Of a stretch of DNA of 64,000 nt, positions 11,473 to 36,769 are shown in pieces. Origin of the DNA: Jiangellales bacterium (GTDB lineage: Bacteria; Actinomycetota; Actinomycetes; Jiangellales; Jiangellaceae); assembly GCA_035462375.1 (NCBI GenBank), contig DATHUJ010000057.1:114-64113 (forward strand), given 5' to 3'. The stretch's first letter is position 1; every line of letters starts with the position of its first letter. Below the pieces are notes generated by a model, which had not been told where the DNA came from, made no database searches, and saw only the letters and a list, made by a program, of their open reading frames with translations. Position numbers and translations under genes: made by a program.

Positions 11473-13449
<1,977 letters not shown>

Positions 13450-15541: not shown

Positions 15542-15584
15542 GAGTACTCCTCGGCGGGCGGCGGGGCCGCAGCGGCCCGGGTGG

Positions 15585-15598: not shown

Positions 15599-15733
15599 GC
15601 TAGGAGCGGGTCGGGGCCCCCGGGAGGGGTGCGGGCACCTGCTGCGATCAGCGGGCCCGACGCCGCGATCGCCGGGAGAGCGGGGTGCGACGAGCGGTCG
15701 CCCTCGCGCGATGAGCGGCCACCGCCTCCCCAC

Positions 15734-15815: not shown

Positions 15816-15829
15816 TTGGGGCCACGCGG

Positions 15830-17584: not shown

Positions 17585-17910
17585 CGGCGCTGGACCAGCT
17601 CGGTGAAGTCGCGCTCGACCCGCTCGGCCTGGCGAACGTAGAGCCAGGCGGTGCCGACGAGGACCGGGTAGACGAGCACGCCGAGCAGGACCCACGACAA
17701 CGGGACGCCGAAGAGCTCGACGTCACGGACCGACGGCGCGACGAGGAAGAGCAGCGGCAGGGCGCCGAAGAGGCCGAGCACCGTGCCGGCCGTGAGCAGC
17801 CCCAGCCGCAGCTGGGCCCGGACCAGCGAGCGCATGTAGACCTCGCCCAGCCGGGTCTGCTCGTCGATCTCGCGCGTGGCCTCCCGGTGACGCGCGCGGG
17901 AAGCGCGCAT
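17581..17910 (-). CDS. small two-TM membrane protein, DUF485-like symporter partner
   Basis: It has two hydrophobic helices and a WLYVRQAERVERDF tail that resembles the DUF485 tail [12 protein letters not shown]. The start is ambiguous between ATG 17910 and GTG 17955, which lies 2 nt after the regulator stop. Confidence 0.55.
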   Translation of the reverse strand: MRASRARHREATREIDEQTRLGEVYMRSLVRAQLRLGLLTAGTVLGLFGALPLLFLVAPSVRDVELFGVPLSWVLLGVLVYPVLVGTAWLYVRQAERVERDFTELVQRR

Positions 17911-17957
17911 CCGGGGGCTCGTGACGACGACGCGCCGCTGCTCCCGGTCGGGCACGG

Positions 17958-18749
17958 TCAGCCGCCGCCCTGGCGTCCAGGCCGGGCCCGGCGGACCAGC
18001 AGGTCGCGCAGCTCCCGGGTGTGCCGGCGGCTCACGGCCAGTGTCTCGCCACCCACCCGGACGGTGCAGCGGCCGCCGTCGATGCGCAGCTCCTCGATGT
18101 ACGCGAGCGACACCAGGTGGCTGCGGTGGATACGGACGAAGCCCGCCGGGCCCCACTGCTCCTCGAGCGTCGCCAGCGGCACCCGGACGAGGTGGGTTCC
18201 GTCGGGGGTGTGGAGGCGTGCATAGTCCCCCTGCGCCTCGACGAAGCGGACGTCGCTGCGGTTGACGAACCGCGTGACCCCGCCGAGCTCGACGGGGATG
18301 GTCTCGTCCGGCCCCTCTTCCGGTTCGTCGTCCGGCGACGGTGCCCCCGCCGCCTCGACGACCCGCCGGACCGCCTCGGCCAGCCGCTCCGCCCGTACGG
18401 GCTTCATGACGTAGTCGACCGCGTGCAGGTCGAAGGCGTCGACGGCGTGGTCGTCGTATGCGGTGACGAACACGACCGGGGGCGGCTGCCGGAAGCGGGC
18501 GAGCACGCGGGCGAGGTCAAGGCCCGTGAGCCCGGGCATCCGGATGTCGAGGAAGAGCGCGTCGACGTGCTCTTCCTGCAGGATCCGCAGGGCGGTGGCG
18601 CCGTCGCCGGCCGTACGGACGCGGCCGACGCGCGGGTCGCGGCCCAGGAGGTAGGCCAGCTCCGACAGGGCGGGTGGCTCGTCGTCGACGGCAAGGACGG
18701 CGAGAGCCTCTGGGCCGGACGTGGCGGGGCCGGACCGGGGGCCGGTCAC
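17958..18749 (-). CDS. LytR/AlgR-family response regulator (REC + LytTR)
   Basis: It reads LAVDDEP...DALFLDIRMPG...MKP, then a LytTR region (FVEAQGDYARLHT...FVRIHRSHLV). GTG 18749 overlaps the kinase stop (GTGA). Confidence 0.9.
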   Translation of the reverse strand: MTGPRSGPATSGPEALAVLAVDDEPPALSELAYLLGRDPRVGRVRTAGDGATALRILQEEHVDALFLDIRMPGLTGLDLARVLARFRQPPPVVFVTAYDDHAVDAFDLHAVDYVMKPVRAERLAEAVRRVVEAAGAPSPDDEPEEGPDETIPVELGGVTRFVNRSDVRFVEAQGDYARLHTPDGTHLVRVPLATLEEQWGPAGFVRIHRSHLVSLAYIEELRIDGGRCTVRVGGETLAVSRRHTRELRDLLVRRARPGRQGGG

Positions 18750-19927
18750 GCGTGAACCCCCGAGCGGTACTTCGGCACCCGCATGCTCACCTTCGTCCCC
18801 GCTCCCGGCGCCGTCTCCACGACCAGGCCGTAGCCGTCCCCGAAGACGGCCCGGAGCCGCTCGTCGACGTTGCCCAGCCCGACGCTGTCGCCGGACGGCT
18901 CGCCGGCGAGCGTACGCCGGACGACCTCCGGGTCCATGCCGACGCCGTCGTCCTCCACCGAGATCGCGCACTCGTTGCCGGCGTCGTCGGCAACGATGCT
19001 GACGTGCCCTGGGCCGGGTCGTCCCTCCAGGCCGTGCTGGACGGCATTCTCGACCAGCGGCTGCAGGCAGAGGAACGGTACGGCGACGGGCAGCACCTCC
19101 GGCGCCACCCGCAGGGTCACCTGCAGCCGGTCGCCGAAGCGGGCCTTCTCCAGCAAGAGGTAGCGCTCGATCGACCGGAGCTCCTCGGCCAGCGTGGTGA
19201 AGTCGCCGTGCCGCCGGAACGAGTAGCGCGTGAAGTCGGCGAACTCGAGCAGCAGCTCGCGGGCGTGCTCGGGGTCCGTGCGCACGTACGAGGCGATGGC
19301 GGTCAAGGAGTTGTAGACGAAGTGCGGCGAGATCTGCGCCCGCAGGGCGCGCACCTCGGCCTCCATCAGCCGGGCCCGCTGCTGGTCCACCTCGGCGAGC
19401 TCGAGCTGCCCGGAGACGAAGAGCGCGACCTCCTCGACGGCACGCACGAGGCCCGCCGACGGCCGGGCGATGGTGTAGGCGGCGACGGCGCCGACCACGC
19501 GTTCCTCGGTGGTCAGCGGGGCGACCACGGCGTGCCGGATCGGGCAGTCCGGCTCGGCGCAGGCGACGGCGTCCTGGCCGAGGACGACCGTGCGGCCGCC
19601 CTCGACCGCGGACCGGGCGTGACCGGGCACGCCGGGGCCGTGCGCCGGCCCGGCACCGTCCCAGGCCAGGCACCGCTCGCCGTCGGTGAGCGCGACCGCG
19701 CGCGTGCCCAGCAGCGCCCGCAGGTGCCGGATCGCCCGCTCGGCGCTGGCCTCCGTGAGGCCGGCGCGGAGCGCGGGCGAGGCCTGCGAGGCGGTGTGCA
19801 GGGTGCGGTACGTGACCTGGTCCGCGGGGGTGCCGAGGTCGCGCCGCGACCGCGCCAGCCGCGAGAGCCCGTACGCGCCGACGGCGACGAGGGCCAGCAG
19901 CGCCGCCGCCGTCAGCACCTCCTGCAT
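18746..19927 (-). CDS. LytS-type sensor histidine kinase (single TM + GAF-like + His_kinase/HATPase)
   Basis: It has an ISPHFVYNSLTAI H-box, LQPLVENAVQHG and DDGVGMD...GLGNV. Start set at MQEVLTAAALLALV (19927). Confidence 0.85.
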   Translation of the reverse strand: MQEVLTAAALLALVAVGAYGLSRLARSRRDLGTPADQVTYRTLHTASQASPALRAGLTEASAERAIRHLRALLGTRAVALTDGERCLAWDGAGPAHGPGVPGHARSAVEGGRTVVLGQDAVACAEPDCPIRHAVVAPLTTEERVVGAVAAYTIARPSAGLVRAVEEVALFVSGQLELAEVDQQRARLMEAEVRALRAQISPHFVYNSLTAIASYVRTDPEHARELLLEFADFTRYSFRRHGDFTTLAEELRSIERYLLLEKARFGDRLQVTLRVAPEVLPVAVPFLCLQPLVENAVQHGLEGRPGPGHVSIVADDAGNECAISVEDDGVGMDPEVVRRTLAGEPSGDSVGLGNVDERLRAVFGDGYGLVVETAPGAGTKVSMRVPKYRSGVHA

Positions 19928-20058
19928 GGGCCGCACGGTAACGCCACCCCGCCGCCGGTCCCGGCTTTCGTGCCCGCCGGAGGTGACCAAAGCCTCCACC
20001 GCCCGGGCCCGCCCGCTCCTAGCGTCGAGGCGACGGTTCCGGCGGAGGAGGCACCGAC

Positions 20059-20931
20059 ATGGACGTGCCGGCCATCAGCACCCACGGCCTCACCAAGCAC
20101 TTCGGGCCCGTGGTCGCGCTGCAGGACCTCGACCTCGCGGTCGCGCAGGGCGAGATCTTCGGCTACCTCGGCCCCAACGGGGCGGGCAAGTCCACGACGA
20201 TCCGCCTGCTGCTGAACCTGATCCGGCCGACGGCCGGCAGCGCGGAGATCATGGGGATCCCCGCCCTCGACGTCGCCCGAGCGCACCGCCACGTCACGTA
20301 CGTGCCGGGGGACGTGGCCCTGTGGCCTCAGCTGACGGGGGCGGAGATCCTCACCCTGCTCGGCCACGTGTCCGGCGGCGTGGACGCGGCCTACCGCGAC
20401 GAGCTGGTCGAGCGGTTCCAGCTCGACCCGAGCAAGCGCGCCCGCTCCTATTCCAAGGGCAACCGGCAGAAGGTGGCCCTGGTCGCCGCCTTCATGACCC
20501 GCCCGGACGTCCTGCTGCTCGACGAGCCCACCGCTGGCCTCGACCCGCTGATGGAGGAGGAGTTCCAGCGGATCGCCCGGGACGCCGCCGCACGCGGTCA
20601 GACGATCTTCCTCTCCTCGCACATCCTCGACGAGGTCGAGGACCTCTGCGACCGGGTCGGGATCCTGCGCGAGGGGCGTCTGGTGGAGGTGGCCGCGCTG
20701 GAGGAGCTGCGGCGGATGCACACGACGGTCTTCGAGGCGATCGTGGACGGAGACCTGCCGGACCTGAGCGGGCTGCACGGTGTGACCGTCACCGAGCCGA
20801 TCCCGGGCGGCGTCCGGGTCTCGGTGACGGGATCCCCGGCCGAGCTGCTCAGCCGCCTGGCGTCCGTCCCGGTGATCCAGCTGCGCAGCCACGAGCCGTC
20901 GCTCGAGGAGATCTTCCTGACCTACTACTGA
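20059..20931 (+). CDS. ABC transporter ATP-binding protein
   Basis: It has Walker A GPNGAGKST, signature YSKGNRQK and Walker B LLLDEPTAGLD. Confidence 0.95.
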   Translation: MDVPAISTHGLTKHFGPVVALQDLDLAVAQGEIFGYLGPNGAGKSTTIRLLLNLIRPTAGSAEIMGIPALDVARAHRHVTYVPGDVALWPQLTGAEILTLLGHVSGGVDAAYRDELVERFQLDPSKRARSYSKGNRQKVALVAAFMTRPDVLLLDEPTAGLDPLMEEEFQRIARDAAARGQTIFLSSHILDEVEDLCDRVGILREGRLVEVAALEELRRMHTTVFEAIVDGDLPDLSGLHGVTVTEPIPGGVRVSVTGSPAELLSRLASVPVIQLRSHEPSLEEIFLTYY

Positions 20932-20938
20932 GGAGGCC

Positions 20939-22531
20939 GTGGTGGGTACGCAGCTCGCGGTCGTCCGCCTGTCGTCCCGGCTGGTGCGGCGCGGCGCGGT
21001 GCTGGTTGCGCTGGGCGCCGCCGGGTACGTGGTGGTGGAGGCGCTCAGCTACGAGGCGGCCTACCCGGACGCGGCCTCCCGGGCCCGGCTGGCCGAGCTC
21101 GGCGACGAGCCGGCGATCCGCATGCTGTCGGGCCTCCCGTACGCCGTGGACACCGTCGGTGGCTTCGTGGTGTGGGACGGGGGCTACTTCCTCCAGACGC
21201 TGGCCGGCATCTGGGCCTTGATCGCCACCGCGCGCCTGCTCCGCGCCGAGGAGGAGGCCGAACGCACCGAGCTCGTGCTCGCCGGCCCGGTCCGGGCGAC
21301 ACGCGCGGTCGCGCTGCAGCTGCTGGTCGTCCTCACGGGGTGTCTGCTCATCGGCGCTGCGGTGGCCGGCGCGCTCGCGGCGTCCGGCGCCGAGGTGGCC
21401 GGCTCGGCCATCGTGGGCCTGGCGGTCGCAGGGTTCGGGGCCGTGTTCGCCGGCGTGGCGGCTGTGACCAGCCAGCTTTTCGAGGTCCGCCGTCGGGCCG
21501 TCGGCGCGGCCGCCATCACCCTGGGCCTGGCCTTCCTGCTGCGGATGGTGGCGAACAGCTCCGACGAGCGGTCGTGGGTGGCGTGGTCGACGCCGTTCGG
21601 CTGGATGGAGAGGCTGCGTGCCTTCGGCGAGAACCGCTGGTGGGTTCTCGGGCTGCACGTGGGCGTGGTGGCTGTGCTCGCCACCACGGCCCTGGTCCTG
21701 CGCAGTCGCCGGGACATCGGCACCGCGCTCCTGGCGTCGAGCGACGCCCCGCGCCCGCGCCTCCGGCTGCTCACCAGCCCGGTCGCCTTCGCATGGCGCA
21801 GCTCGCTGGGGATCCTGGCGGCCTGGGCAGCCGGCCTGGTCCTCTACACCGTGGTCCTCGGCACGCTGCTGGTGACGATGACCGACTTCCTCACCGAGGA
21901 CCCCACCTACCGGGCGACGCTCGAGCTGATGGGGATCGACCTGACCGAGGTGACCCGGGGGCTGATCGGCGTCATGGGGGTGCTGTACGGCCTGGTCTTC
22001 GCGCTGTACGCCGCCTGGCGCGTGGGAGCTGCGCGGACCGAGGAGGCGACAGGTCGGCTCGAGCACCTGCTGACCCGTCCGGTGCCCCGCTGGCGCTGGT
22101 TCGGCGGTCACGCCCTGCTGACCCTGGTGTCCGCGGCGCTGCTCGCCGTGCTCACGGGCCTCTCCCTGTGGGCCGGGGCCGCGGTCGCCGGTTCGGAGCT
22201 GACGCTGGGCGACGCCGTGGCGTCCACCGCCAACACGCTGCCCGTCGTCGTGCTGTTCGGCGGGCTGGCCTTCCTCATGCTCGGTGCGGCCCCGCAGCTG
22301 ACGGTCGGCCTGACCGTCGGCCTCGCGGCGCTCACGTACGTCCTCCAGCTCGTCGGTCCGATGCTCGAGTGGCCCTCGTACGTGGTGGGCCTGTCGCCGT
22401 TCCACCACCTGGCACCGGTCCCGGCCGAGCCGTACGCCCTGGTGGCCGGCCTGGTGATGGCGGGACTCGGCCTGGCGGCCGCCCTGCTCGGCATGGCGGC
22501 CTTCCAGCGGCGGGACCTCGCCGGGGCCTGA
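20939..22531 (+). CDS. ABC-2 type exporter permease (large, ~12 TM)
   Basis: It is a 530-aa hydrophobic protein immediately downstream of the ATPase. Confidence 0.75.
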   Translation: MVGTQLAVVRLSSRLVRRGAVLVALGAAGYVVVEALSYEAAYPDAASRARLAELGDEPAIRMLSGLPYAVDTVGGFVVWDGGYFLQTLAGIWALIATARLLRAEEEAERTELVLAGPVRATRAVALQLLVVLTGCLLIGAAVAGALAASGAEVAGSAIVGLAVAGFGAVFAGVAAVTSQLFEVRRRAVGAAAITLGLAFLLRMVANSSDERSWVAWSTPFGWMERLRAFGENRWWVLGLHVGVVAVLATTALVLRSRRDIGTALLASSDAPRPRLRLLTSPVAFAWRSSLGILAAWAAGLVLYTVVLGTLLVTMTDFLTEDPTYRATLELMGIDLTEVTRGLIGVMGVLYGLVFALYAAWRVGAARTEEATGRLEHLLTRPVPRWRWFGGHALLTLVSAALLAVLTGLSLWAGAAVAGSELTLGDAVASTANTLPVVVLFGGLAFLMLGAAPQLTVGLTVGLAALTYVLQLVGPMLEWPSYVVGLSPFHHLAPVPAEPYALVAGLVMAGLGLAAALLGMAAFQRRDLAGA

Positions 22532-22562: not shown

Positions 22563-23303
22563 GTGACCGCTGACCCCTTCGCCGCCGTGGCCGCGCTCGA
22601 GGGCGTCGGCGCTGCGGCAGCACACGCCCGGGACGCCGTTGACAGCCTCCTGCGCCACCCGGCGATGCGGCGTGGCTCGGGGGCCGTGGCCGCGGAGTCC
22701 GCCCTGCGCGGTGCCCGGGCGTCGGCGCTGCTGGACGGCGCGGACGGGCGGGTCGAGGACCCGGCCGACGACCCGGTCCTCCAAGGGGCGTTACGGGCCA
22801 CCGCCGAGGTCCCCGCTCTCGCCCGCACGTGGGAGCGCGCGCCGGCGCAGGCCCTGGCCCGGCTCCACCTGCTCGCTGCTCGCGACCTGCCCGGCCTGGA
22901 CGCGGAGGAGCTGGGGCGCCCGCGGCCGGACGCCGACTCGGACCGGTTGGCCCAGCTGATGGGTCTCGTCGCGGCACCGAGCCGGGCCCCTGCCGTGGTC
23001 GTCGCCGCGCTGGTCCACGGAGACCTGCTCGCCATGCGCCCGTTCGGCTCCGCCGACGGGGTGGTGGCGCGGGCGGCCGAGCGCCTGGTACTCGTCGTCC
23101 GCGGGATCGACACCAAGGCCGTCGGCGTACCGGAGGTCGGCCACCTCACGGCGGGGCCCACCTACGCCACCGCGGCGCGGGCGTACACGGCGGGCACCCC
23201 CGCCGGGGTCGGTACCTGGGTGCGGCACTGCTGCGACGCCTACGCGCGCGGCGCCGAGGAGGGCCTGGCGATCTGTGCCGAGCAGGGCGCTCCCGGTCGG
23301 TGA
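22563..23303 (+). CDS. conserved hypothetical protein with degenerate Fic/Fido-like motif
   Basis: It is 246 aa. HGDLLAMRPFGSADGVVARAAERL resembles HxFx(D/E)GNGRxxR, but the GNGR core is not conserved. Confidence 0.55.
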   Translation: MTADPFAAVAALEGVGAAAAHARDAVDSLLRHPAMRRGSGAVAAESALRGARASALLDGADGRVEDPADDPVLQGALRATAEVPALARTWERAPAQALARLHLLAARDLPGLDAEELGRPRPDADSDRLAQLMGLVAAPSRAPAVVVAALVHGDLLAMRPFGSADGVVARAAERLVLVVRGIDTKAVGVPEVGHLTAGPTYATAARAYTAGTPAGVGTWVRHCCDAYARGAEEGLAICAEQGAPGR

Positions 23304-26476: not shown

Positions 26477-27367
26477 CTACCGGTCGCCGACCCGCCGGCG
26501 AGCCGCGTACCAGACGATCCCCGCCGCGGCGGCGCCCGCCCCCAGCGCGACTGCCGCGAGGGCAGGCTTGGACGCCTCCCGCAGGGAGCGCCGCTGCCGC
26601 AGCGCGACGGGGCGGGAGAAGACCAGCACCGGCCACCCCTTCTCGGCCGCCACTCGCCGCAACGCGCGGTCGGGGTTGACGGCGTAGGGGTGGCCCACCG
26701 CCTCGAGCATCGGGAGGTCGGTGATCGAGTCGGAGTAGGCGTAGGACCGCGACAGGTCGTAGTCCTCGCTCTCGGCCAGCGCCTCGATCGCCGCGGCCTT
26801 CTCGGTCCCGTACACGTAGGACTGGATGGTGCCGTCGTACCGGCCCTCGTCATCGACGACCATCCGGGTCGCGACCACCTTGTCCGCGCCGAGCATCTCC
26901 CCGATCGGCTCGACCACCTCGGCGCCCGACGAGGACACGATGACCACGTCGCGCCCGGTCAGGTGGTGCTCCTCGATGAGGGTCACGGCCTCGTCGTAGA
27001 CGATCGGGTCGACGATCGTGTGCAGGGTCTCCGCGACGATGTCCTTGACGGTCTGCACGTCCCACCCGGAGACCATCCTGGAGAGGTACTCGCGCATCCG
27101 CTCCATCTGGTCGTGGTCCGCCCCGCCGACCAGGTAGACGAATTGGGCGTAGGCGCTGCGCAGCACGGCCCGCCGGTTGATCAGGCCGCCCTGGTAGAAG
27201 CTCCGCGAAAAGGCCAGCGTGCTCGACTTGGCGATGATCGTCTTGTCGAGGTCGAAGAACGCGGCCGTCCGGGTCACCGACCTCGCCGGGCGGTCGCCGT
27301 CGGGGACGGGCGCCGCGACGACCCCGTCGGGGACCGGGAGGGCTGCGCTGTCCACTCTCCCGAGCAT
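26477..27367 (-). CDS. HAD-IB family hydrolase (SerB-like) with C-terminal TM anchor
   Basis: It has FFDLDKTII (DxD), SSSG and a later D motif. The C-terminus KPALAAVALGAGAAAAGIVWYAARRR is hydrophobic. Start at MLGRVDS. Confidence 0.85.
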   Translation of the reverse strand: MLGRVDSAALPVPDGVVAAPVPDGDRPARSVTRTAAFFDLDKTIIAKSSTLAFSRSFYQGGLINRRAVLRSAYAQFVYLVGGADHDQMERMREYLSRMVSGWDVQTVKDIVAETLHTIVDPIVYDEAVTLIEEHHLTGRDVVIVSSSGAEVVEPIGEMLGADKVVATRMVVDDEGRYDGTIQSYVYGTEKAAAIEALAESEDYDLSRSYAYSDSITDLPMLEAVGHPYAVNPDRALRRVAAEKGWPVLVFSRPVALRQRRSLREASKPALAAVALGAGAAAAGIVWYAARRRVGDR

Positions 27368-27464
27368 AGGTGCCGGGAGAAATCTTCGGCGAGCGGCCGG
27401 AGTGACTGGTTTGGCCGGACCTGAAGGGGGCAGTATGGGGCGTGGCGGCACCCCCCTGCCGCTC

Positions 27465-27497
27465 GGGACCGATCCCCTCCCCCTTGGATCGGGTCCC
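27465..27497. promoter_or_regulatory. near-perfect inverted repeat GGGACCGATCC...GGATCGGGTCCC in the HAD/ssd divergent region
   Basis: Read directly from the sequence. It has one bulged G and a 10-nt C/T-rich loop. Confidence 0.35.
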
Positions 27498-27539
27498 ATC
27501 TGCGGCCCCCGCCCTCCCCCCCGGCGGGGGCCGCGCCGC

Positions 27540-27576
27540 GTCCACAGCCGGCTCGACCGGCTGTCCGTGTCCACAG
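27540..27576. promoter_or_regulatory. direct repeat GTCCACAG (x2) bracketing an 8-bp inverted repeat ACAGCCGG-N5-CCGGCTGT
   Basis: Direct repeats at 27540-47 and 27569-76, inverted repeat at 27544-51 / 27557-64. It lies about 75-110 nt upstream of the ssd-like start. Confidence 0.4.
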
Positions 27577-27649
27577 CGTGCCGCCATGACGGGAGGCTCC
27601 CCCGGGTGGGCCGACAGGGTGGCGTGATCCCGTCGCCAGGAGGTCACTC

Positions 27650-28756
27650 GTGCCGCGTGCACACGCCCCGTCCCGCCCCCCCGCCCCCGCCGGTCCTGTG
27701 CGCCCCCTGGTCGTCACGGCCGACGAGCGGCTCCTCGACGACCTGCTGAGGCTGGCCGCCGCCGCAGGCGTGGACGTCGATGTGGCCGACGACGCGGGCT
27801 CGGCGCTGGCCTGCTGGGCAGCTGCTCCCCTCGTGCTGGTCGGGACCGACCTCGTCGGCCCGCTGTGCGGAGCGGCCCCACCTCGGCGCAGGGCCGTCGC
27901 GCTGGTCGGGGCCGACCTGGACGACGCATCGGTGTGGCAGCGCGCCGTCGAGCTCGGGGCCGAGCACGTGCTCTTCCTGCCCGACGCCGAGCCCTGGCTG
28001 GTCGAACGGCTGGCGGACGCGGCGGAGGGGCCCGAGGGCGAGTCGGTCGTGGTCGGCGTGGTGGGCGGTCGGGGCGGTGCCGGTGCGTCGGTCCTGGCCA
28101 CCGCCCTCGCGCTGACGTCGGGCAGGCGAGGATCACCGACGACGCTGGTCGACGCCGACCCCCTGGGTGGTGGGCTCGACCTGGTGCTCGGCGCCGAGGA
28201 CTGCCACGGGCTGAGGTGGCAGGACCTCGCGCACACCCGCGGCAGGGTGGCGGGGACGGCCCTGCGGGAGGCTCTCCCCCACGTGTCCGGGCTCACCCTG
28301 CTCGCCTGGGACCGCGGTGAGGGACTCACCCTCCCGGCGGAGGCCGCCCGCACCGTCCTCGAGGCGGTCCGCCGGACGAGCGAGCTCGTGGTGGTCGACC
28401 TGCCCCGGCGACTCGACCCCGCGGTCGAGGAGCTGCTCTCCCTTTGCACCACGACTCTGCTGGTCGTGCCGGCCGAGATACGTGCCGTGGCGGCCGCCGG
28501 CCGGGTAGCCGCCGGTCTGGGCCTGATGACCTCCGACCTCAGGCTGGTCGTGCGCGGTCCCTCGCCCGGGGGACTGGGTCCCGACGAGGTGGCGCGGGTC
28601 CTCGGCGTGCCGCTGGCCGCTCACCTCCGTCCCGAACCGGGTCTCACCGAGGCACTCGAGCAGGGGCGGCCGCCGGGCGGATCCGGGCGGGGACCGCTGG
28701 CCGGGGTGTGCGGTGACCTGCTCGACCAGCTGGTCACGGCCCGGGGTGCCGCGTGA
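27650..28756 (+). CDS. CpaE/TadZ-like ParA-family protein (Ssd-type septum site-determining protein)
   Basis: AGGAGG precedes GTG 27650. It has a receiver-like N-terminal domain. The P-loop region [19 protein letters not shown] lacks both lysines of KGGxGK[ST]. Confidence 0.8.
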
Positions 28757-29913
28757 GCTCGGTAGACCGAGGCCTGCTCGAGCGGGTCCGGACCGTGCTC
28801 GCCGCAACGCCCGGCGAGGCGACCCCCGCCCGGGTGGCAGCGGCTCTCCGGGCCGAGGGTGCGGTGCTCGGCGACGCAGCCGTGCTCGAGGTCACCGCGA
28901 TCCTGCGCGCCGAGATCGTGGGGGCCGGTCCGCTCGAGCCGTTGCTCCGTGAGCAGGGTGTCACGGACGTGCTGGTCAACCGGCCCGACGAGGTGTGGGT
29001 CGATCGGGGCGCGGGGCTCGAGCGGTCCACCGTCCGCCTCCGCGACGAGGCCGCGGTCCGCCGCCTGGCCCAGCGGCTGGCGGCCGGTGCCGGACGACGG
29101 CTCGACGATGCGATGCCCTGGGTCGACGCGAGGCTCGCCGGAGGCGTTCGCCTGCATGCGGTGCTGCCGCCGCTGTCCCCGACGGGGACGCTCGTGTCCC
29201 TGCGGGTCCCGGCTCGCCGGGCCCTCACGCTCGACGACCTGGTCGCAGCCGGCAGCGTGGCACCGGCGCTGCAGGGGTGGATCCGCGGGATCGTCGCGGC
29301 CCGGCTCGCCTTCCTCGTCACCGGGGGTACTGGTACCGGCAAGACCACCGTGCTCGCCGCGCTGCTGTCCCTGGTCGACGTGCGGGAGCGGCTCGTGCTC
29401 GTCGAGGACTCGGGCGAGCTCCGGCCCGAGCACCCGCACGTGGTGAGGCTGGAGGCCCGACCCGCCAACGTCGAGGGGGTCGGCGAGGTGGCACTCGACG
29501 ACCTGGTCCGGCAGGCCCTGCGGATGCGGCCCGACCGACTGGTCGTCGGAGAGGTGCGGGGAGCCGAGGTCGTCGACCTGCTCGCCGCCCTCAACACCGG
29601 TCACGAGGGCGGGTGCGGCACGGTCCACGCCAACTCCCCTCACGCGGTGCCGGCCCGGCTCGAGGCGCTCGGTGTCGCGGCCGGGCTGGGCCGCGACGCC
29701 CTGCACAGCCAGGTTGCCGCCGCCCTCGACCTCGTCCTCCACCTCACCCGCGACCGGTCCGGTCGTCGGCGCGTTGCCGAGGTCGACCTGCTGCGTCCCG
29801 ACCCGGCGGGCCGCGTCGCCGCGGTGCCCGCGCTGCACTGCGATTCCGATGGCTCCGTACGAGGAGGGCCCGCCCTCGACGGGTTGCGCGAGCTGGTCGG
29901 TGGCCGGTGCTGA
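28753..29913 (+). CDS. tadA: TadA/CpaF-family secretion ATPase
   Basis: It has Walker [24 protein letters not shown] and [13 protein letters not shown]. Its GTG overlaps the previous stop (GTGA). Confidence 0.9.
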
Positions 29914-30653
29914 CCCTGCTGGCGACGGCCTGCGCCGCCGCCGCAGTGGCCATCGCGGTGCCGCCACCTGCCGGCCCTCTCGTACGGCGTCGGCTGGGCA
30001 CCCGTGACCAGCGACGCTGGTGGGCGGCCCGAGACATGTCGGCGCTGAAGGCAATGGTTTCGGCGGCCGGCATCGCCGCGGACCGGGCTCGCCCGCGCAC
30101 GGCGGAGCGGCTCGGGTCGGTGGAGGTGACCGAGGCGTGCCTCGCGCTGGTGGGCGAGCTCCGTACCGGGCAAGCACCTTCCGAGGCCCTGACCTCTGCG
30201 GCCCGCGCCTTCCCGACCCTGCTCGGGCCGGCGGCGGCCCGGTCCCGACTCGGGGGCGACGTCCCTGGAGCGCTCCGTGCTGCCGCCGACCGGCCCGGAG
30301 CAGGGGCGCTGGTTGCCGTGGCTGCCGGCTGGTCGGTGTGCGACCGGACCGGCGCCGGGCTCGCGGACGTCCTGGCCAGCGTGGCCGACTCACTGCGTGC
30401 GGACGAGGCCGTCCGGCGCGAGGCAGCAGGTCAGCTCTCCTCCGTGCGGGCCACCACCCGGTTGCTGGCGGTGCTCCCGGTGGTGACCCTCCTGGCCGTG
30501 TCCGGGGGAGGAGGACGACCACTGGCCTTTCTCCTCGGGCACCCGGTCGGAGTCGCCTGCCTCACCGCCGGCGGGTCGCTCACGGTGGTCGGACTCGTCT
30601 GGGTCGAGCGCATGGTGCGGTCGGTCACGAGGTCGCCGTGGTCGACGGCGTGA
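29907..30653 (+). CDS. tadB: type II secretion system F-family membrane protein (TadB-like)
   Basis: It has hydrophobic N- and C-terminal helices and a cytoplasmic domain with GAP..EAL and ADSLRADEAVRREA. Its GTG overlaps the tadA stop (GTGCTGA). Confidence 0.7.
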   Translation: MLTLLATACAAAAVAIAVPPPAGPLVRRRLGTRDQRRWWAARDMSALKAMVSAAGIAADRARPRTAERLGSVEVTEACLALVGELRTGQAPSEALTSAARAFPTLLGPAAARSRLGGDVPGALRAAADRPGAGALVAVAAGWSVCDRTGAGLADVLASVADSLRADEAVRREAAGQLSSVRATTRLLAVLPVVTLLAVSGGGGRPLAFLLGHPVGVACLTAGGSLTVVGLVWVERMVRSVTRSPWSTA

Positions 30654-31444
30654 CGGTGGCCTGCGCGCTGGCTGCGGGAGCCGCGGTCGCGGTGGTGGCC
30701 GGTCCGGCCCCCGCGCGGGCTCGGCTGGCCGCGGTGCGGCCCGCGGGTGGCCGAGCAGCGTACCCGGGCAGGGTGACGGCACCAACGCGACGCGCGACCG
30801 GGTCCGGTCGGGTCATCCACGTGCGCAGCGGGCCCGGTGCCGTGCTGTCGTCGAGCGGGGCCAGGCTCGTGGCGGGGGCCCTCGGCGGCCTGGGGTCTGC
30901 CGTCGTGCTCGGTGGCACCCCCGGCCTGGTCGCCGGATGCCTGGTCGCGGGCCTGCTGGTGCGGTGGCTCGGCCGGCTCGAGCCGGGCTCCGCCGCGCGC
31001 GAGACAGCGGAGGTCGAGGCGGCCCTGCCCCTGGTGGCCGACCTGCTGTCCGCCGTCGTGGCTGCCGGCACCCCACCGGACCGTGCGGCTCACCTGGTCG
31101 GATCGGCTGTCGGCGGCCCGCTGGGTGCACTGCTGGTCGCAGGTGCTGACCGGACGAGCCTGGGCGGAGACCCCGCCACGGCGTGGCGGGGGCTTACTGC
31201 CCGACCGGTCACCACGCGGCTCGCACGCGCGCTCGTGGCCGCGGGGGAGCGGGGGGCCGCTCCGGCCGAGGCGCTGGCGCGGGTTGCGGCCGACGCGCGC
31301 AACTCGGCTCGCTGGGCCGCAGAGACCCGGGTCCGGGCCCTGGGTGCGCGGGCGGCGGCGCCGCTCGGGCTGTGCTTCCTCCCCGCCTTCCTGCTCGTCG
31401 GAGTGGTCCCCGTCGTGGCCGGAGCCGGGTCGGTGCTGCCATGA
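30650..31444 (+). CDS. tadC: type II secretion system F-family membrane protein (TadC-like)
   Basis: It is 264 aa with a C-terminal ARWAAETRVRALGARAAAPLGLCFLPAFLLVGVVP, typical of T2SSF. Its GTG overlaps the previous stop (GTGA). Confidence 0.7.
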   Translation: MTVACALAAGAAVAVVAGPAPARARLAAVRPAGGRAAYPGRVTAPTRRATGSGRVIHVRSGPGAVLSSSGARLVAGALGGLGSAVVLGGTPGLVAGCLVAGLLVRWLGRLEPGSAARETAEVEAALPLVADLLSAVVAAGTPPDRAAHLVGSAVGGPLGALLVAGADRTSLGGDPATAWRGLTARPVTTRLARALVAAGERGAAPAEALARVAADARNSARWAAETRVRALGARAAAPLGLCFLPAFLLVGVVPVVAGAGSVLP

Positions 31445-31599
31445 CCGGCGGAACCCGTCCACACCTGCGCTGAGGCACCGGCTCGTCCCCAGCGATCGGA
31501 CAGGGGCTGGGCGGCGGCCGGGCGGGACCCGAGGCTGGTCACGCCCGGACAGCCCCGGGCGCCGCACCGGCCGGTCGCCGGTCCGCACCAGGAGGTTGC

Positions 31600-31836
31600 A
31601 TGTCCGCCACTCCCTCCGTCCTCGTCCCACGGGTCGGGCGCCGGTTCCGCCTCAACCCAGCCCGACTCGCGAACCTCCTGCGGGGGGAGGACCGGGGCAT
31701 GACCACGGCCGAGTACGCCGTGGGCACGGTCGCCGCCTGTGGCTTCGCGGGAGTCCTCTACAAGCTGCTGACCAGTGACGTGGTGGTCTCGCTCCTGACC
31801 GAGATCCTCCGGCGCGCCTTCGGGCTGCTCGGGTGA
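31600..31836 (+). CDS. Flp-like prepilin, DUF4244 family
   Basis: CAGGAGG lies 5 nt before ATG 31600. The predicted processing motif is ...GEDRG|MTTAEYAVGTVAACGFAGVL, a G-X4-EY Flp-type site. An internal ATG at 31699 also has a Shine-Dalgarno sequence but would remove the leader. Confidence 0.75.
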   Translation: MSATPSVLVPRVGRRFRLNPARLANLLRGEDRGMTTAEYAVGTVAACGFAGVLYKLLTSDVVVSLLTEILRRAFGLLG

Positions 31837-32003
31837 GGGCGGTCATGTCCTGCCGGCGGGGGGCCGTCCCCCGCCGGCGCCCCCGGGCCGGGCCCGCACC
31901 GGGGGATGGGTGGCCGCGGCCGGGCCGCTGGTCCGGTCGTCCGGGCCGGTCGGGACGTCGGGTGTGCCGGTGGCGGCGCGCGAGGCCTTGTCGGGAGGCG
32001 GGC

Positions 32004-32351
32004 ATGGTGACCGCCGAGACCGCGGCTGCGTTGCCGGTCCTCGTCGTGGTGCTGGTGGCGGCGGTCTGGGCGGTGGGGGCCGCGGCGGCCCAGCTCCGCT
32101 GCACGGACGCGGCGCGCGAAGCGGCCCGGGCATTGGCCAGAGGCGACGGCATCGGCACCAGCCGGGCGCTGGCCGTGGCGGTGGCGCCCGCGGGAGCGGC
32201 GGTCGGGGTCTCCGTCGAGGGCGATCTGGTCCGGGTGCGGGTGAGTGCCCTGACGCCACTGCCGGCCCCGTTGGGCGGTCTGGTGCCCGCTCCGACGGTC
32301 AGCGGCTCCGCAGTGGCGATGCGCGAACGGCCGCTCGGCGGTGACCCGTGA
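32004..32351 (+). CDS. TadE-like minor pilin (helicase/secretion-neighbourhood type)
   Basis: It reads MVTAETAAALPVLVVVLVAAVWAVGAAAAQLRCTDAAREAARALARGD. GGGAGG lies 5 nt before ATG 32004. An alternative GTG 31833 (GTGA-coupled) or GTG about 31962 would add an Arg-rich leader ending ...EAG|MVTAE. Confidence 0.7.
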   Translation: MVTAETAAALPVLVVVLVAAVWAVGAAAAQLRCTDAAREAARALARGDGIGTSRALAVAVAPAGAAVGVSVEGDLVRVRVSALTPLPAPLGGLVPAPTVSGSAVAMRERPLGGDP

Positions 32352-32986
32352 GCCCCCGACGCCCCGCGAGGTCCCCGCGACCGTGGGGGCGTGGTCGGGC
32401 CGGCGCACGCGCGCGCGACCAAGGGTCGGGAACGCTCCTGGTGCTGGCCGTGGCGGCGGTCGTGCTGCTCGCCGCAGCGGCGGGAGGTGCGCTCGCCCAG
32501 GGTGTCGCCTCCCGGCACCGCGCGGCGACGGCCGCCGACCTTGCTGCCCTGGCAGCGGCGGAGCGTCTGCTGTCCGGAACCGGTGATGCCTGTGCGGCTG
32601 CGCACGCCGTGGCCACTGGCAACGGAGGCGTGCTGGTGCGCTGCGCGGTCAACGGGCGGGAGGTCGAGGTGGCCGTCCGGGTGACAACCGGACCGGCGGG
32701 ACGGCTGGTCCGGCTGGCCGACCCGGTGCGCCTGGCCCGGGCCGGGCCCGGCCCGGGCCCGAGCTACGAGCGGGTGGCCTGGTCGGGTCCGGGCGTCGTC
32801 GGGTCGCCGTCGCTGCGGAGCTCGGCGTCGCCGCGGCGGCCGGCGGCGCTGTCACCGGGGGCCGGGCGGGTGGTGCCGGTGGCTTCCCGCTCGTCGAGCT
32901 CACGCCGGAGCTCGGCGCGCTCGCCCTCGAGCTGCTGGCGCTCCCGGAGCTCGCGCTCGAGGCGCTCCTTCTCCACCGCCAGCTGA
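32348..32986 (+). CDS. Rv3654c-type TadE-like protein with long Ser/Arg-rich C-terminal extension
   Basis: GTG 32348 overlaps the previous stop. The core reads GSGTLLVLAVAAVVLL...HRAATAADLAALAAA...NGGVLVRC...ARAGP. The first in-frame stop is only at 32984-32986, inside the convergent gene. Confidence 0.6.
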   Translation: MSPRRPARSPRPWGRGRAGARARDQGSGTLLVLAVAAVVLLAAAAGGALAQGVASRHRAATAADLAALAAAERLLSGTGDACAAAHAVATGNGGVLVRCAVNGREVEVAVRVTTGPAGRLVRLADPVRLARAGPGPGPSYERVAWSGPGVVGSPSLRSSASPRRPAALSPGAGRVVPVASRSSSSRRSSARSPSSCWRSRSSRSRRSFSTAS

Positions 32987-33264
32987 TCGCGCTCCTCGGA
33001 GACCGACTGGCTGGAGGCGGCGCGCTCGCGCAGCACCTTCTGCTCACGCCGCCGGTCCCGGGCCCGGCGGGTGGCGGTGAGGAGCAGGACGGTGGCGATC
33101 AGGAAGACCAGGCCGGTGATCAGGCCGGTCAGGAACACGCCGGTGACCGTGGTCTCGACCTCCGCGACGAAGACGTCGAGGGTGGCAGCGTCGCCGCTGC
33201 TGATGATGATCCCGATGGCGAACAAGGTGGCCAGGGCGATGATGACGATCGCGAGCACGACCAC
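32764..33264 (-). CDS. membrane protein with two TM helices and a charged coiled-coil tail (LapA-like architecture)
   Basis: GAGGAG lies 6 nt before GTG 33264. It reads VVLAIVIIALATLFAIGIII...VFLTGLITGLVFLIATVLLL, then RRREQKVLRERAASSQSVSEERDQLAVEKERLERELRERQQLEGERAELRRELDERE. Confidence 0.7.
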   Translation of the reverse strand: MVVLAIVIIALATLFAIGIIISSGDAATLDVFVAEVETTVTGVFLTGLITGLVFLIATVLLLTATRRARDRRREQKVLRERAASSQSVSEERDQLAVEKERLERELRERQQLEGERAELRRELDEREATGTTRPAPGDSAAGRRGDAELRSDGDPTTPGPDQATRS

Positions 33265-33283
33265 AGCAGTCTCCTCTGCAGTG

Positions 33284-35623
33284 TCAGTGACCGGCCCGGA
33301 CTCCGGGAGCCCCGGCGAGGAGCTCGTCGAGGAGTCGCACGGCGCCGGACTTGTCCAGTGGATTGTTCCCGTTCCCACATTTCGGGCTCTGTACGCATGA
33401 GGGGCAGCCCTCGGCGCACGTGCAGGAGGCGATGGCGTCTCGGGCCGCGCGCAGCCATGACCCGGCCGCCTCGTAGCCCCGCTCCGCGAAGCCGGCACCA
33501 CCGGGATGGCCGTCGTGCACGAAGACGGTGAGCCGGCCCGTGTCGGGGTGCAGTGCGGTCGACACCCCACCGACGTCCCACCGGTCGCAGGTGGCGACCA
33601 GCGGCAACAGGCCGATCGCCGCGTGCTCGGCAGCGTGGGCCGCCCCGGGCACGTCGGCACCGTGGACCCCAGCGTCGGCCACCCGGTCGTCCGGCAGGGT
33701 CCACCACACCGCCTTGGTGCGCAGGTGCCGCTCCGGCAGGTCCAGCGGCTCCTCGCCCAGCACCTCGCCGCTCCCGGCCCGCCGGCGCAGGAACGACACC
33801 ACCCGGCTGGTCACCTCGACCGCGCCGAAGGACAGCCGGGCCGACCCCCAGTCCTGCCCCCTTTCCTCCTCGAGGACGCGGATCTCGGTCACCTCCCGGG
33901 CCGTCGTCGTGTGATCGGTGACTACGGCGTCCACCAGCGCGACCGCCTCGTCCAGGTCGAGGTCGCGCACCAGGAAGGTCTCTCCCTGGTGCACGTAGAC
34001 GGCGCCGCGGTGCGCTGTCGAGTGGGCGCGCCCTGAGTCCACCGTCCCCAGCAGCCGCCCCGTCCCCGCCTCGACCAGCCGCACGGGAGGGCCTCCGGTC
34101 CCGCGCAGGTCGGCCAGGTCACATGCCCGCTCACGCCGGGTCCAGAACCACCCGCCGGCCCGGCGTCGCAGCATCCGCGACCGCTCCAGCCCCGCGACGG
34201 CAGTACGGGCGTTGGGGCCGAACAGCGCCAGGTCGGACTCGTCCAGGGGTGCCTCCGCAGCGGCGGCGCAGAGGTGCGGCGCCAGCACGTAGGGGTTGTC
34301 CGGGTCGAGCACCGTCGCCTCCACGGCCCGGCCGAACACCGCCTGGGGGTGGTGCACGAGGTAGGTGTCCAGCGGGTCGTCCCGGGCCACCAGGACCGCC
34401 AGCGCCCCTTGCCGCGCCCGGCCGGCCCGCCCCGCTTGCTGCCACAGGGACGCCCGGGTACCGGGCCAGCCGGAGAGGAGCACGGCGTCGAGACCGGCGA
34501 CGTCGACCCCCAGCTCCAGGGCGTTGGTTGCCGCCACTCCCACCAGCTCGCCGGACTGGAGGGCGGCCTCCAGCCGCCGGCGCTCGTGGGACAGGTAGCC
34601 CGAGCGGTACGCAGCGACGCGGTCGGCGAGCTCGGGCGCCACCGGGACCAGCTGGCCGCGCACCTGGAGGGCGACCGACTCCGCCGCGCGCCGCGACCGG
34701 ACGAAGGCCACCGTCCGGACGCCCTGGACCACCAGGTCGGAGAGGAGGTCGGCCGTCTCGGCCGTCGCACTCCGCCGTACGGGAGCACCGTTCTCCCCGT
34801 GGAGCATGTCGGACAGCGGCGGTTCCCACAGCGCGAAGGCGGTCGGGCCGCGCGGCGACGCGTCGTCCTCGACGGCCACCACGTCGAGGCCGGTCAGCCG
34901 TCGGGCGGTGGCGGCCGGCTCGGAGGCGGTCGCCGAGGCGAGGATGAAGACCGGTGACGAGCCGTAGCGGGCGCAGAGCCGGCGCAGCCGGCGCAGCACC
35001 TGCGCCACGTGCGAGCCGAAGACCCCCCGGTAGCCATGGCACTCGTCGACGACGACGTACCGCACCGACTGGAGGAACGCCGCCCAGCGGTGGTGCCTCG
35101 GCAGCAGCGATCGGTGCAGCATGTCCGGGTTGGTGAGCAGGTACGAGGCGTGGTCGCGCGCCACGTCGCGCAGCTCGGCGGGCGTGTCCCCGTCGTACGT
35201 GGTGGCGAGCACGTCGGGTACGCAGAGCCGGTCCAGGGCGCGCAGCTGGTCGGCGGCCAGCGCCTTGGTCGGTGAGAGGTAGAGGACCGTCGCGCCGCGC
35301 CGCCCGCGCGCCACGCCGGCACGGACCGCCGTGAGCGCCGGCATCAGGTACGCGAGGGACTTGCCCGACGCGGTACCGGTGGCGACCACGACGGACCGTC
35401 CCGCCCAGGCGTGCTCGGCGGCCCGCACCTGGTGCCGCCAGGGCCGCTCGACCCCCGCCGCGACCAGGCGGTCCCGGACGACCGGGTCGAGCCAGGCCGG
35501 CCACGGGGCGGCGCCCTCCGTCCGCGCGGGGACGTCCTCGACGTGGGTCACCCGGTCGCTGCGCGCGTGGCCGGCGAGGTGGTCCAGCAACGCGCGCGGG
35601 TCGGCGGTCCTGGCGTCGGGCAC
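33284..35623 (-). CDS. DEAD/DEAH-box helicase, DECH subtype, with C-terminal DUF1998/MrfA-like Cys cluster
   Basis: It has Walker [24 protein letters not shown] and QQAGRAGR. The C-terminus reads [28 protein letters not shown]. It is 779 aa. Confidence 0.9.
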
Positions 35624-35751
35624 CCCAGCAGTCTCGCACCGGGGGCCGGGGCGCGGTGCCGGGCCGCGCCGAGCAGGTGGTTGAATGCCGGGGTCCGTGC
35701 CGGGACCGCCCTGGAGGGGGTACGGCAGACCGAGCGGCCGTGGGAGGCTCC

Positions 35752-36093
35752 GTGGACCTGTCGTTGTCGACCCGACCCGAGGGCGAGCGCACCGTCGTCG
35801 ACGTGGCCGGTGAGATCGACGTCTACACCGCCCCGCAGCTGCGCGAGCAGCTCGTCGAGCTCGTCGACTCGGGACGGTACGACCTGGTGATCGACATGGA
35901 GCGGGTCGAGTTCCTCGACTCGACCGGTCTCGGCGTGCTGGTGGGGGGCCTCAAGCGGGTCCGCGCGCACGACGGTTCGCTGCGCCTGGTCTGCACCCAG
36001 GAGCGGATCCTCAAGATCTTCCGGATCACCGGACTGACCAAGGTCTTTCCCATCCACGACTCGGTGACCGAGGCCGTCGCGGCGACGGACTGA
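35752..36093 (+). CDS. bldG: STAS-domain anti-sigma-factor antagonist, BldG-like
   Basis: It is 113 aa and reads [38 protein letters not shown]...[49 protein letters not shown]. It is near-collinear with Streptomyces BldG as I remember it. GGGAGG precedes the GTG. Confidence 0.85.
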
Positions 36094-36109
36094 CCGGCGG
36101 GGAGGGCTC

Positions 36110-36541
36110 GTGGCCGAGGTCGAGCTGCGCATCGACCCGCTGACCTCGCACGTCCGGACCGCCCGACAGGTGGCGGTGGCCCTGGCCCGGCGGGCGGGAG
36201 TGGCGCCGGACGTGCTCGACGAGGTCCGGCTCGCCGTGGGGGAGGCCTGCGGCCTGGCCGTGGCACTGCAGCGGCGGGACGAGGACGCCGAGCAGGTGGT
36301 CCTCCGGTTCGAGGACGGTGACGGGCTGGCCGTGGAGCTCCGCGGCTCGACCGTACTGGCCGAGGCCGAGGGGGACGCTGCGGTCCAGGTGCTCTCCGAC
36401 GCCGTGGTCGCCGACGAGGACGACGACGAGGCGCTGCCCGCGGGCGCGGTCCTAGCGGTCCTCTCCGAGCTGGTTCCCGGTCTCCAGGTGGTCACCGGGC
36501 CGGCCGGTCCCCGCCTCGGGCTGCGCTGGCCGCCGGGCTGA
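36110..36541 (+). CDS. anti-sigma factor / RsbW-like HATPase_c_2 protein (ApgA-like)
   Basis: It lies immediately downstream of the STAS gene and GGGAGG precedes GTG 36110. It reads VRTARQVAVALARRAG...DEVRLAVGEACGLAV...EDGDGLAVEL. Confidence 0.65.
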   Translation: MAEVELRIDPLTSHVRTARQVAVALARRAGVAPDVLDEVRLAVGEACGLAVALQRRDEDAEQVVLRFEDGDGLAVELRGSTVLAEAEGDAAVQVLSDAVVADEDDDEALPAGAVLAVLSELVPGLQVVTGPAGPRLGLRWPPG

Positions 36542-36769
36542 CCGCCGCGCCCACGCCCCTCTCGTACGGGGGGCGGTGCAGGGAGCGCGCCCACGCCTGC
36601 GTAGACTCCCGCCCCACACGGGGCCGCCGGTGTCCACCCTGCTGGAGCGTGGGGCCCTTCGTACCGCACCGACACCGCACTGTCGCCACGGCCGTCGACC
36701 CAGGAGCGCTCCCCGGGTGCGCGGCCGCTGTCGTGGTCGGCCCGCCGAGGGCCACGTCAAGGAGGACGA

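Follow-up and report, generated by a model that had tools for sequence, protein, structure and literature searches.

Genes for Tad/Flp (type IVc) pili and for DNA helicases of the SftH/MrfA type lie together in a gene neighbourhood already catalogued in Actinobacteria, and the region analysed here is a standard copy of it. It is located in a stretch of 64,000 nt (hereafter the window), positions 114 to 64,113 of contig DATHUJ010000057.1, from an uncultured environmental actinobacterium of the order Jiangellales. Among the closest described systems, the tad-2 cluster of Micrococcus luteus produces Flp pili without which transformation fails, and the competence homologues found in this species are ComEA, ComEC and DprA only. 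In Mycobacterium tuberculosis, the orthologous seven-gene operon is a single transcript, as determined by reverse transcription PCR, and the helicase gene Rv3649 is not included in it. The helicase family is known from M. smegmatis SftH (MSMEG_6160; Rv3649 in M. tuberculosis), a monomeric enzyme found in biochemical assays to have DNA-dependent ATPase activity as well as 3'-5' translocase and helicase activity on single-stranded DNA (ssDNA). Transposon insertions in Rv3649 are viable, so that the gene appears non-essential. In Bacillus subtilis, MrfA and the exonuclease MrfB repair mitomycin C damage, without pili. A 2025 survey of ~52,000 family members placed the non-defence branch of the family in DNA repair, its genes being either accompanied by MrfB or free of any conserved context.

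An earlier note on this DNA, made from its sequence, had proposed that pilus, membrane platform, ATPase and helicase resemble a single machine for DNA uptake or export, and had stated that Tad pili are needed for natural transformation of M. luteus. The latter is confirmed in the literature. As for the machine, the best explanation of the locus, and in our view a probable one, is that it consists of three independent modules which are adjacent through old, slowly decaying actinobacterial synteny.

Gene content of the locus

Since the G+C content of the window is ~74%, reading frames were judged by codon-position GC as well as by the length of the open reading frame (ORF). About 55 window ORFs were scanned for Pfam domains and with NCBIfam models, the scores of which were compared to curated cut-offs. 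The genes, their order and their strands were all as the earlier note had described them, and a search of each protein with hidden Markov models confirmed the TIGR and Pfam families it had named, above the cut-offs where these are curated. The genes of the three modules are as follows.

27650–28756, + strand: ssd, CpaE/TadZ-like ATPase of the ParA/MinD family, first gene of the operon (TIGR03815, 388.8 bits, cut-off 154)
28753–29913, + strand: tadA, secretion/pilus ATPase of the VirB11/CpaF superfamily, heli_sec_ATPase type (TIGR03819, 500.5 bits, cut-off 373; T2SSE, 199.6 bits)
29907–30653, + strand: tadB, inner-membrane platform protein (Pfam T2SSF, 34.8 bits)
30650–31444, + strand: tadC, second platform protein (T2SSF, 55 bits; 268 aa in an independent gene call)
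31600–31836, + strand: flp, DUF4244 Flp-type prepilin of 78 aa (DUF4244, 82 bits; processing motif G/MTTAEY)
32004–32351, + strand: tadE, Rv3655c-type minor pilin, 115 aa in an independent call (NF041390, 91 bits, cut-off 40; Pfam TadE PF07811)
32348–32986, + strand: TadE/TadG-like gene of the Rv3654c family (TIGR03816, 82.9 bits, cut-off 51, residues 24–134; PF13400)
32764–33264, - strand: small membrane and coiled-coil protein, 166 aa (in-frame G+C at third codon positions 0.93; independently called; Shine-Dalgarno motif)
33284–35623, - strand: SftH/MrfA (YprA, COG1205) superfamily 2 (SF2) DNA helicase, 779 aa (TIGR03817, 1203 bits, cut-off 874)
35752–36093, + strand: BldG-like STAS anti-sigma-factor antagonist, 113 aa (TIGR00377, 107 bits, cut-off 53; STAS, 83.5 bits)
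36110–36541, + strand: anti-sigma-factor serine kinase, partner of the STAS protein (HATPase_c_2, 51.3 bits; independently called)

All four curated "helicase/secretion neighbourhood" families (TIGR03815, TIGR03816, TIGR03817 and TIGR03819) exceeded their cut-offs, and the co-location is encoded in these family names, as the earlier note had said.

The first module is a Tad/Flp pilus operon of seven + strand genes, spanning 27650–32986 (ssd, tadA, tadB, tadC, flp, tadE and the Rv3654c-type gene). It has a TadA/CpaF-type ATPase with two T2SSF proteins, a Flp with a G/XXXXEY site, and TadE and PF13400 pseudopilins. The first start codon of the ssd frame is the GTG at 27650, preceded by a GGAGG Shine-Dalgarno-like motif; the beginning of the feature had formerly been put at 27368, which falls in the ~350-bp intergenic region between ssd and a divergent HAD-family hydrolase gene. 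Nearly all genes had been described as joined by short start/stop overlaps. The GTGA overlaps at 28753 (ssd/tadA), 30650 (tadB/tadC) and 32348, and the GTGCTGA at 29907 (tadA/tadB), are real, but flp is flanked on both sides by gaps of 155–167 nt and tadE probably does not overlap it. The most likely start of tadE is ATG 32004, which has a strong Shine-Dalgarno motif and leaves 167 nt after flp; the longer starts at 31833 or 31962 would give a G/MVTAE leader. An alternative start of tadC at 30638 is possible. Around its cleavage site, the Flp translation reads ...GEDRG before the cut and MTTAEYAVGTVAA... after it.

In the distal, Rv3654c-type ORF the family match stops near 32750, and the remaining ~75 codons form an Arg/Ser-rich tail. 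Its last 223 nt (32764–32986) are antisense to the coiled-coil part of the 166-aa membrane gene. Of these two genes, only that of the membrane protein was called by the independent gene finder, which left out the Rv3654c-type one.

Neither an A24 prepilin peptidase nor a secretin was detected among the ~55 scanned ORFs, in agreement with the earlier note, and no dedicated TadV/CpaA peptidase is encoded in the window; in Actinobacteria, tadV is as a rule located away from the other tad genes. The same note had listed TadG as missing too. Because the distal gene matches PF13400 (TadE/G-like), we do not regard TadG as truly missing: the authors of the M. luteus work call such proteins TadG-like, and the matter is one of naming.

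We infer pilus function and filament assembly from characterised homologues. Ssd, being TadZ-like, would position the pilus machine, TadA would power it, and TadB and TadC would make up the membrane platform. The DUF4244 prepilin would be processed at G/MTTAEY, by a TadV peptidase whose gene is not in the window, and then polymerised, with TadE and the Rv3654c-type protein, both pilin-like at their N-termini, as putative minor or anchoring pilins. By analogy with M. luteus tad-2, the most likely function of the filament is to capture DNA for transformation through ComEA/ComEC; a part in surface adhesion is possible.

The second module contains the helicase. Its Pfam domains are DEAD, Helicase_C, WHD_HRQ1 and MZB (formerly DUF1998), its DECH motif II and CxCx3Cx2C zinc cluster are both intact, and residues 22–746 align to the structure of B. 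subtilis YprA/MrfA (PDB 6ZNP, E = 1e-136). The protein thus has the DExH SF2 core, the winged helix and the C-terminal MZB/DUF1998 four-cysteine cluster that define SftH/MrfA. No gene for a MrfB-type exonuclease is adjacent, the downstream gene being that of the 166-aa membrane/coiled-coil protein, which has no nuclease domain; we therefore assign the helicase to the "YprA only" branch. From what is known of SftH and MrfA, it is predicted to have DNA-dependent ATPase and 3'-5' activity, and probably acts as a monomeric 3'-5' ssDNA translocase/helicase in DNA repair or recombination. The 166-aa gene starts 19 nt past the helicase stop and is therefore probably co-transcribed with it. Weak homologues of its product were found in just 7 of 163 related loci (L001–L163, see below), and it appears to be lineage-specific. 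The pilus operon runs head-on into these two genes, as the earlier note had it, ending at 32986 on the + strand where the helicase ends at 33284 on the - strand. Given this convergent orientation, helicase and tad genes are therefore not one transcription unit.

The third module is a BldG-type partner-switching pair. The STAS gene is divergent from the helicase, from which it is separated by a 128-bp spacer, and is directly followed by the HATPase_c_2 kinase gene; here too the two family scores bear out the former description.

Conservation of the neighbourhood in relatives

Conservation was measured on samples of loci that were all anchored on the helicase (163 loci, L001–L163). Sample 1 came from a helicase-anchored genome scan and comprised 80 species genomes, with loci of 59–71% helicase identity, the neighbours being scored by tblastn with all window proteins. 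It includes Streptomyces, Kitasatospora, Nocardioides, Kribbella, Streptosporangiales, Catenulispora and Frankiales-type metagenome-assembled genomes (MAGs). Sample 2 comprised 80 metagenome loci, from a scan seeded with the helicase of Actinomyces oris, with 34–97% identity to that helicase. A protein search with the same seed returned only variants of the A. oris group, at least 86% identical, and no wider taxa. In metagenome assemblies, the window helicase itself had one match at 100% and one at 91% identity, the rest being at 74% or less. All counts below are relative to the loci with enough flanking sequence, and lineages are loci collapsed at 65% helicase identity.

The order of the backbone is holB-tmk-topA ... 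H+-PPase-antisigma-bldG-helicase-tad-HAD, with Holin-X, abhydrolase and CvpA-trypsin genes farther out. In Sample 1, tad genes were found beside the helicase in 64 of 67 loci, always convergent, and bldG in 75 of 76. The H+-PPase gene was near the helicase in 67/71, topA was within 10 kb of it in 48/68, and HAD was beside ssd in 53/58. The STAS protein had a median identity of 82% to the neighbour at the same position in 78 of the 80 genomes. In close relatives, neighbours on both sides are thus about equally conserved. At the lineage level, among informative lineages, tad genes were kept in 16 of 20, bldG in 13 of 23, H+-PPase in 11 of 19 and topA in 10 of 17, and the excess of tad over the other neighbours was not significant (Fisher p = 0.12–0.28). 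Set against backbone synteny, the co-occurrence of helicase and tad genes therefore shows no significant excess, and the adjacency from which a single machine had been proposed is not significantly above the links to bldG, H+-PPase and topA.

The neighbourhood is retained in Streptomyces, Nocardioides, Streptosporangiales, Frankiales-type MAGs, Nocardia, Tsukamurella and Actinomyces and, judged by locus tags, in M. luteus and M. tuberculosis. Its retention in Mycobacterium and Streptomyces, asserted in the earlier note, thus holds for the 45 Streptomyces loci that were fetched and, by locus tags, for M. tuberculosis. The full convergent set is kept in distant actinobacterial-type loci (L127, L121 and L106). 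Convergence was seen in nearly every locus, the exception being L103, in which ssd, tadA and tadB point the opposite way from the pilin genes (5572–9641 of that locus); the pilin trio still adjoins the helicase there, as it does in L109.

The interval between the two units and the operon itself vary more. Inserts of 5–7 kb separate helicase and tad in Streptosporangiales, and flp of L109 is separated from a fused tadBC by a 6-kb cassette for sugar utilisation (kinase, aldolase, dehydrogenases, DeoR; 13600–19750). Records mislabelled as plasmids gave three further contexts, from Nocardia farcinica, Tsukamurella and A. oris. N. farcinica has the order holB-topA-helicase-tadE-flp-tadC-tadA-ssd-HAD. 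Tsukamurella shares this order and also has cspA; TfoX_N and TPR genes lie between helicase and tad there, and tadB is split from tadA/ssd by an integrase-bearing element (~43 kb). In the T. tyrosinosolvens locus (L081), 11309–12202 and 18453–22000 hold the TfoX_N and TPR genes and an element with an ImmA/IrrE peptidase and a tyrosine integrase. TfoX_N was considered as a competence link, but the gene occurs in none of the 162 other loci and is regarded as incidental. In A. oris the helicase is followed by two ABC genes, then by the three pilin genes only and then by a SNF2/SWIM helicase, and neither bldG nor topA is nearby. The trio in that locus (L082, 22113–27604) consists of DUF4244, TadE and Rv3654c-type genes, and the SNF2/SWIM helicase, 1225 aa, is encoded directly upstream of the trio on the same strand, at the place of tadC.

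Outside the actinobacterial type, 28 helicase loci were obtained in Sample 2, and tad genes were present in none of the ten whose downstream sequence extended for 6 kb or more. That helicase and tad might be transferred together on mobile elements was also considered and rejected. No true plasmid carried the pair, plasmid tad loci being of the CpaB/CpaE/CpaF type without helicase; among plasmid records, helicase and heli_sec-type TadA occurred together only on pieces of chromosome mislabelled as plasmids (Nonomuraea, Nocardia, Tsukamurella).

Loss of the tad operon with retention of the helicase

In five loci (L090, L091, L096, L097 and L114), HAD follows the helicase at 250–640 bp and no tad genes are present. 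Three of them (L091, L097 and L114) have upstream sequence long enough to show bldG-antisigma-H+-PPase. A further locus, L111, belongs to the same clade by helicase identity and is likewise devoid of tad genes on the downstream side. In two long MAG contigs, bldG-antisigma-H+-PPase are upstream and HAD comes directly after the helicase. For the clade (L165–L167 and the five loci above), which includes MAGs labelled Streptosporangiaceae bacterium and GCA_035501515.1, the order reads H+-PPase-antisigma-STAS-helicase-HAD-HolinX-abhydrolase-DUF309-CvpA/trypsin, with tad excised. The helicases of the tad-less clade go down to 70% mutual identity, and their motifs I, II and VI and zinc cluster are intact. 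The pattern is that of one ancient, clean deletion of the operon in an uncultured clade, followed by long retention of the helicase. A second loss is recent and independent: Streptomyces sp. NPDC006551 has a flp remnant only, where its nearest relative, 96% identical in the helicase, possesses the operon in full. In Kribbella, L117 and Catenulispora, tad is likewise not downstream of the helicase.

The proposal of a single uptake or export machine is thus not supported, and fails by the standard that the earlier note itself had set. Beyond the conservation statistics, it is countered by the convergent orientation of the genes, the unrelated genes inserted between them, the clean loss of tad with a catalytically intact helicase, and the pilus-free repair by MrfAB.

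Possible links between helicase and pilus

Several observations weigh against the independence of the modules. Among the lineages, tad nominally stays with the helicase more often than any other neighbour (16/20). A. oris, L109, L093 and L140 keep tad beside the helicase without nearby bldG, H+-PPase or topA, and broken operons tend to leave the pilin trio with the helicase (A. oris, L103, L109 and L113). A convergent pair conserved over the long term is, moreover, unusual. A search of the window for a LexA box (GAAC-N4-GTTC) and for the RecA-NDp promoter found neither near the helicase nor near ssd, LexA-like matches being present at 13399 and 63240 only. Finally, two findings come from M. 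luteus. Mlut_18140, the orthologous helicase, which by locus tag and orientation is the gene adjoining the distal PF13400 gene of tad-2, has independent single-nucleotide polymorphisms (SNPs) in 2 of 14 ethyl methanesulfonate (EMS) mutants with a repressed comEA/EC promoter (C1962653T in mutant R4 and C1964134T in R13). The tad-1 cluster of the same species is flanked by a FtsK/SpoIIIE translocase, and a point mutation there lowers transformation at least 1000-fold.

Of the alternatives, functional coupling in DNA uptake survives best, and we hold it to be unlikely. The Tad pilus would capture DNA, ComEA/ComEC would import one strand, and the SftH-type helicase would be the cytoplasmic 3'-5' ssDNA motor or processing helicase, taking the place of ComFA, of which none has been found in Actinobacteria; as a variant, it might unwind DNA for export. 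The adjacency is indeed deeply conserved, even where other neighbours have changed, but the units converge, unrelated genes are inserted between them, the helicase stays intact after clean tad loss, and its homologues perform mitomycin C repair without pili. In M. luteus, the distal PF13400 gene of tad-2, a proven competence pilus, abuts the COG1205 helicase Mlut_18140. With ~112 SNPs in 2.5 Mb, the a-priori Poisson probability of two hits in this gene is ~0.005, which favours coupling; however, ~2 genes with at least two hits are expected genome-wide by chance in the same screen. Both mutants also carry mutations linked more directly to competence. In R4 this is Mlut_14650 G27D, sufficient on its own to reduce transformation by a factor of 1000 or more; in R13, tadA1 is mutated. 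The authors of the M. luteus study left the helicase aside.

The uptake motor of M. luteus is missing, because the homologues found there are those of ComEA, ComEC and DprA only, and SftH does translocate 3'-5' on ssDNA; a competing candidate for the motor is mycobacterial RqlH, which has a ComF domain. ComEA, ComEC and DprA were absent from the ~55 ORFs of the window, against a complete uptake system at this place. The NCBI product name of TIGR03819, "conjugal transfer-associated ATPase", speaks for DNA transfer, and the original description of the family presumably proposed such a role as well; the idea is not new. As for conjugation, the window contains no relaxase and no FtsK/TraB-type translocase, and the locus is chromosomal backbone.

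The more specific claim that the SftH-type helicase is the missing motor or processing helicase of Tad-pilus/ComEC transformation, an analogue of ComFA, appears quite unlikely; it would explain both the phylum-wide pair and the two hits in Mlut_18140. Should the helicase work with the pilus, a missing component of DNA uptake would be supplied for Actinobacteria, including Mycobacterium and Streptomyces, whose transformation machinery is barely known, and SftH/Rv3649 would gain a cellular function. The Mlut_18140 alleles and the natural tad-less clade that keeps the helicase offer a sharper test of coupling. If, on the other hand, the modules are independent, the present case adds no more than routine annotation to a conserved piece of the backbone of an uncultured actinobacterium.

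A purely regulatory coupling is very unlikely. Convergent units overlapping at their 3' ends would, by transcription interference or antisense RNA, make expression of pilus and helicase mutually exclusive, and the pair would be kept without any link between the proteins. The 223-nt antisense overlap of the distal tad ORF with the helicase-linked membrane gene fits this scheme, but that membrane gene is lineage-specific. The nearly universal convergence (except L103) fits it too, but several lineages have 2–7 kb inserted between the units and evidently tolerate this. Scans of 27200–36700 for sigma-70 promoters and intrinsic terminators gave no matches, and the lack of a terminator-like hairpin would favour this scheme; the terminator scan covers the canonical intrinsic type only, which is rare in high-GC actinobacteria.

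Finally, that the operon is primarily a device for protein export (secreting small Rv3654c/Rv3655c-like proteins, as proposed for M. tuberculosis) or cell division (Ssd acting on septum placement), with an unrelated helicase, is hardly credible. In its favour, secretion and suppression of macrophage apoptosis have been reported for M. tuberculosis Rv3654c and Rv3655c, and NCBI names TIGR03815 "septum site-determining protein Ssd". Against it, the organism is an uncultured environmental actinobacterium, which makes host effectors implausible; the prepilin site of flp (G/XXXXEY) is canonical; pilin-like N-termini are present in TadE and in the PF13400 protein; and M. luteus builds Flp filaments from the orthologous cluster.

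Other features of the window

The gene divergent from ssd is a conserved neighbour of the backbone and stands outside the pilus system.

26477–27283, - strand: HAD-family hydrolase, start codon approximate (Pfam HAD, 121.8 bits)

Between it and a conserved gene at 22563–23303, the segment 23474–26470 encodes an AlkZ-like DNA glycosylase (PF06224, 212.7 bits), a TetR regulator and a 336-aa ORF. It looks like a lineage-specific insertion in the backbone, because no match to it was found in the 163 loci. Farther along the same side, 8860–9273 and 10804–11376 carry an actinobacterial Holin-X family gene, which is part of the backbone and also present in L165–L167, and, nearby, a Uma2 putative restriction-endonuclease-like gene. 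The segment 11400–13575 has a lower G+C content (~0.70) and two small ORFs only (12086–12379 and 13112–13351). One LexA-like palindrome (GAAC-N4-GTTC, 13399–13410) is found past the 3' end of a sodium:solute symporter gene on the minus strand (13575–15233).

Upstream of the helicase, topA is at ~45477–48128, and the tmk fusion, holB, H+-PPase, anti-sigma and bldG genes are on the same side. The tmk fusion (48165–50285), directly between topA and holB, encodes a 706-aa thymidylate kinase with a fused N-terminal MFS-type membrane domain. A single tRNA (54018–54091; Rfam RF00005, 71 bits) is situated upstream of an ORF for a GTPase of 669 aa (54267–56276), in which RF3_C and EF-Tu domains are recognised; an Rfam scan of the whole window at gathering thresholds found nothing besides this tRNA.

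Comparison with known systems

Tad loci of plasmids and proteobacteria (CpaB/CpaE/CpaF type) share with the window the ATPase, the two T2SSF proteins, Flp and the TadE pseudopilins. They differ in having flp first and CpaB, with or without a secretin, and they are devoid of the DUF4244 pilin, the Rv3654c-type protein and an adjacent COG1205 helicase. In Bifidobacterium, the tadE of B. longum is annotated with the same family name as here.

The helicase has the same full-length architecture as B. subtilis MrfA (YprA) and M. smegmatis SftH, namely a DECH SF2 core, a winged helix and MZB/DUF1998. MrfA works with the adjacent exonuclease MrfB, whereas the window helicase is without such a neighbour gene.

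In M. luteus, Mlut_18140 and tad-2 (Mlut_18150–18190) are arranged as in the window, a COG1205 "helicase with metal-binding cysteine cluster" adjoining the distal PF13400 gene. The likeness extends to the tadA-tadB/C-flp-tadE cluster, to a 77-aa Flp with a G/XXXXEY site and to an unlinked tadV. In contrast to the window, M. luteus is without TadZ/Ssd, has a fused TadB/C and needs a second cluster, tad-1; the role in transformation is demonstrated there and predicted for the window.

M. tuberculosis Rv3649 and Rv3654c–Rv3660c have the same seven-gene order and a helicase of the same family, again convergent. By locus-tag numbers, four further genes (Rv3650–Rv3653), which we take to be PE/PPE genes and which have no counterpart in the window, stand between helicase and operon, and the window, unlike that locus, has the small membrane gene after the helicase. 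On the far side of the helicase, the Mycobacteriales relatives have topA, cspA and holB; cspA occupies in Nocardia and Tsukamurella the place that bldG, the anti-sigma gene and H+-PPase have in the window.

In the 45 Streptomyces loci, H+-PPase, anti-sigma, bldG, helicase, tad and HAD have the order and orientation of the window, and BldG is ~82% identical. The bldG locus of S. coelicolor is, we assume, SCO3548–SCO3558. Compared to Streptomyces, the window has lineage-specific inserts, namely the AlkZ-like glycosylase, the TetR regulator and one more gene on the far side of HAD, together with additional genes separating H+-PPase from topA.

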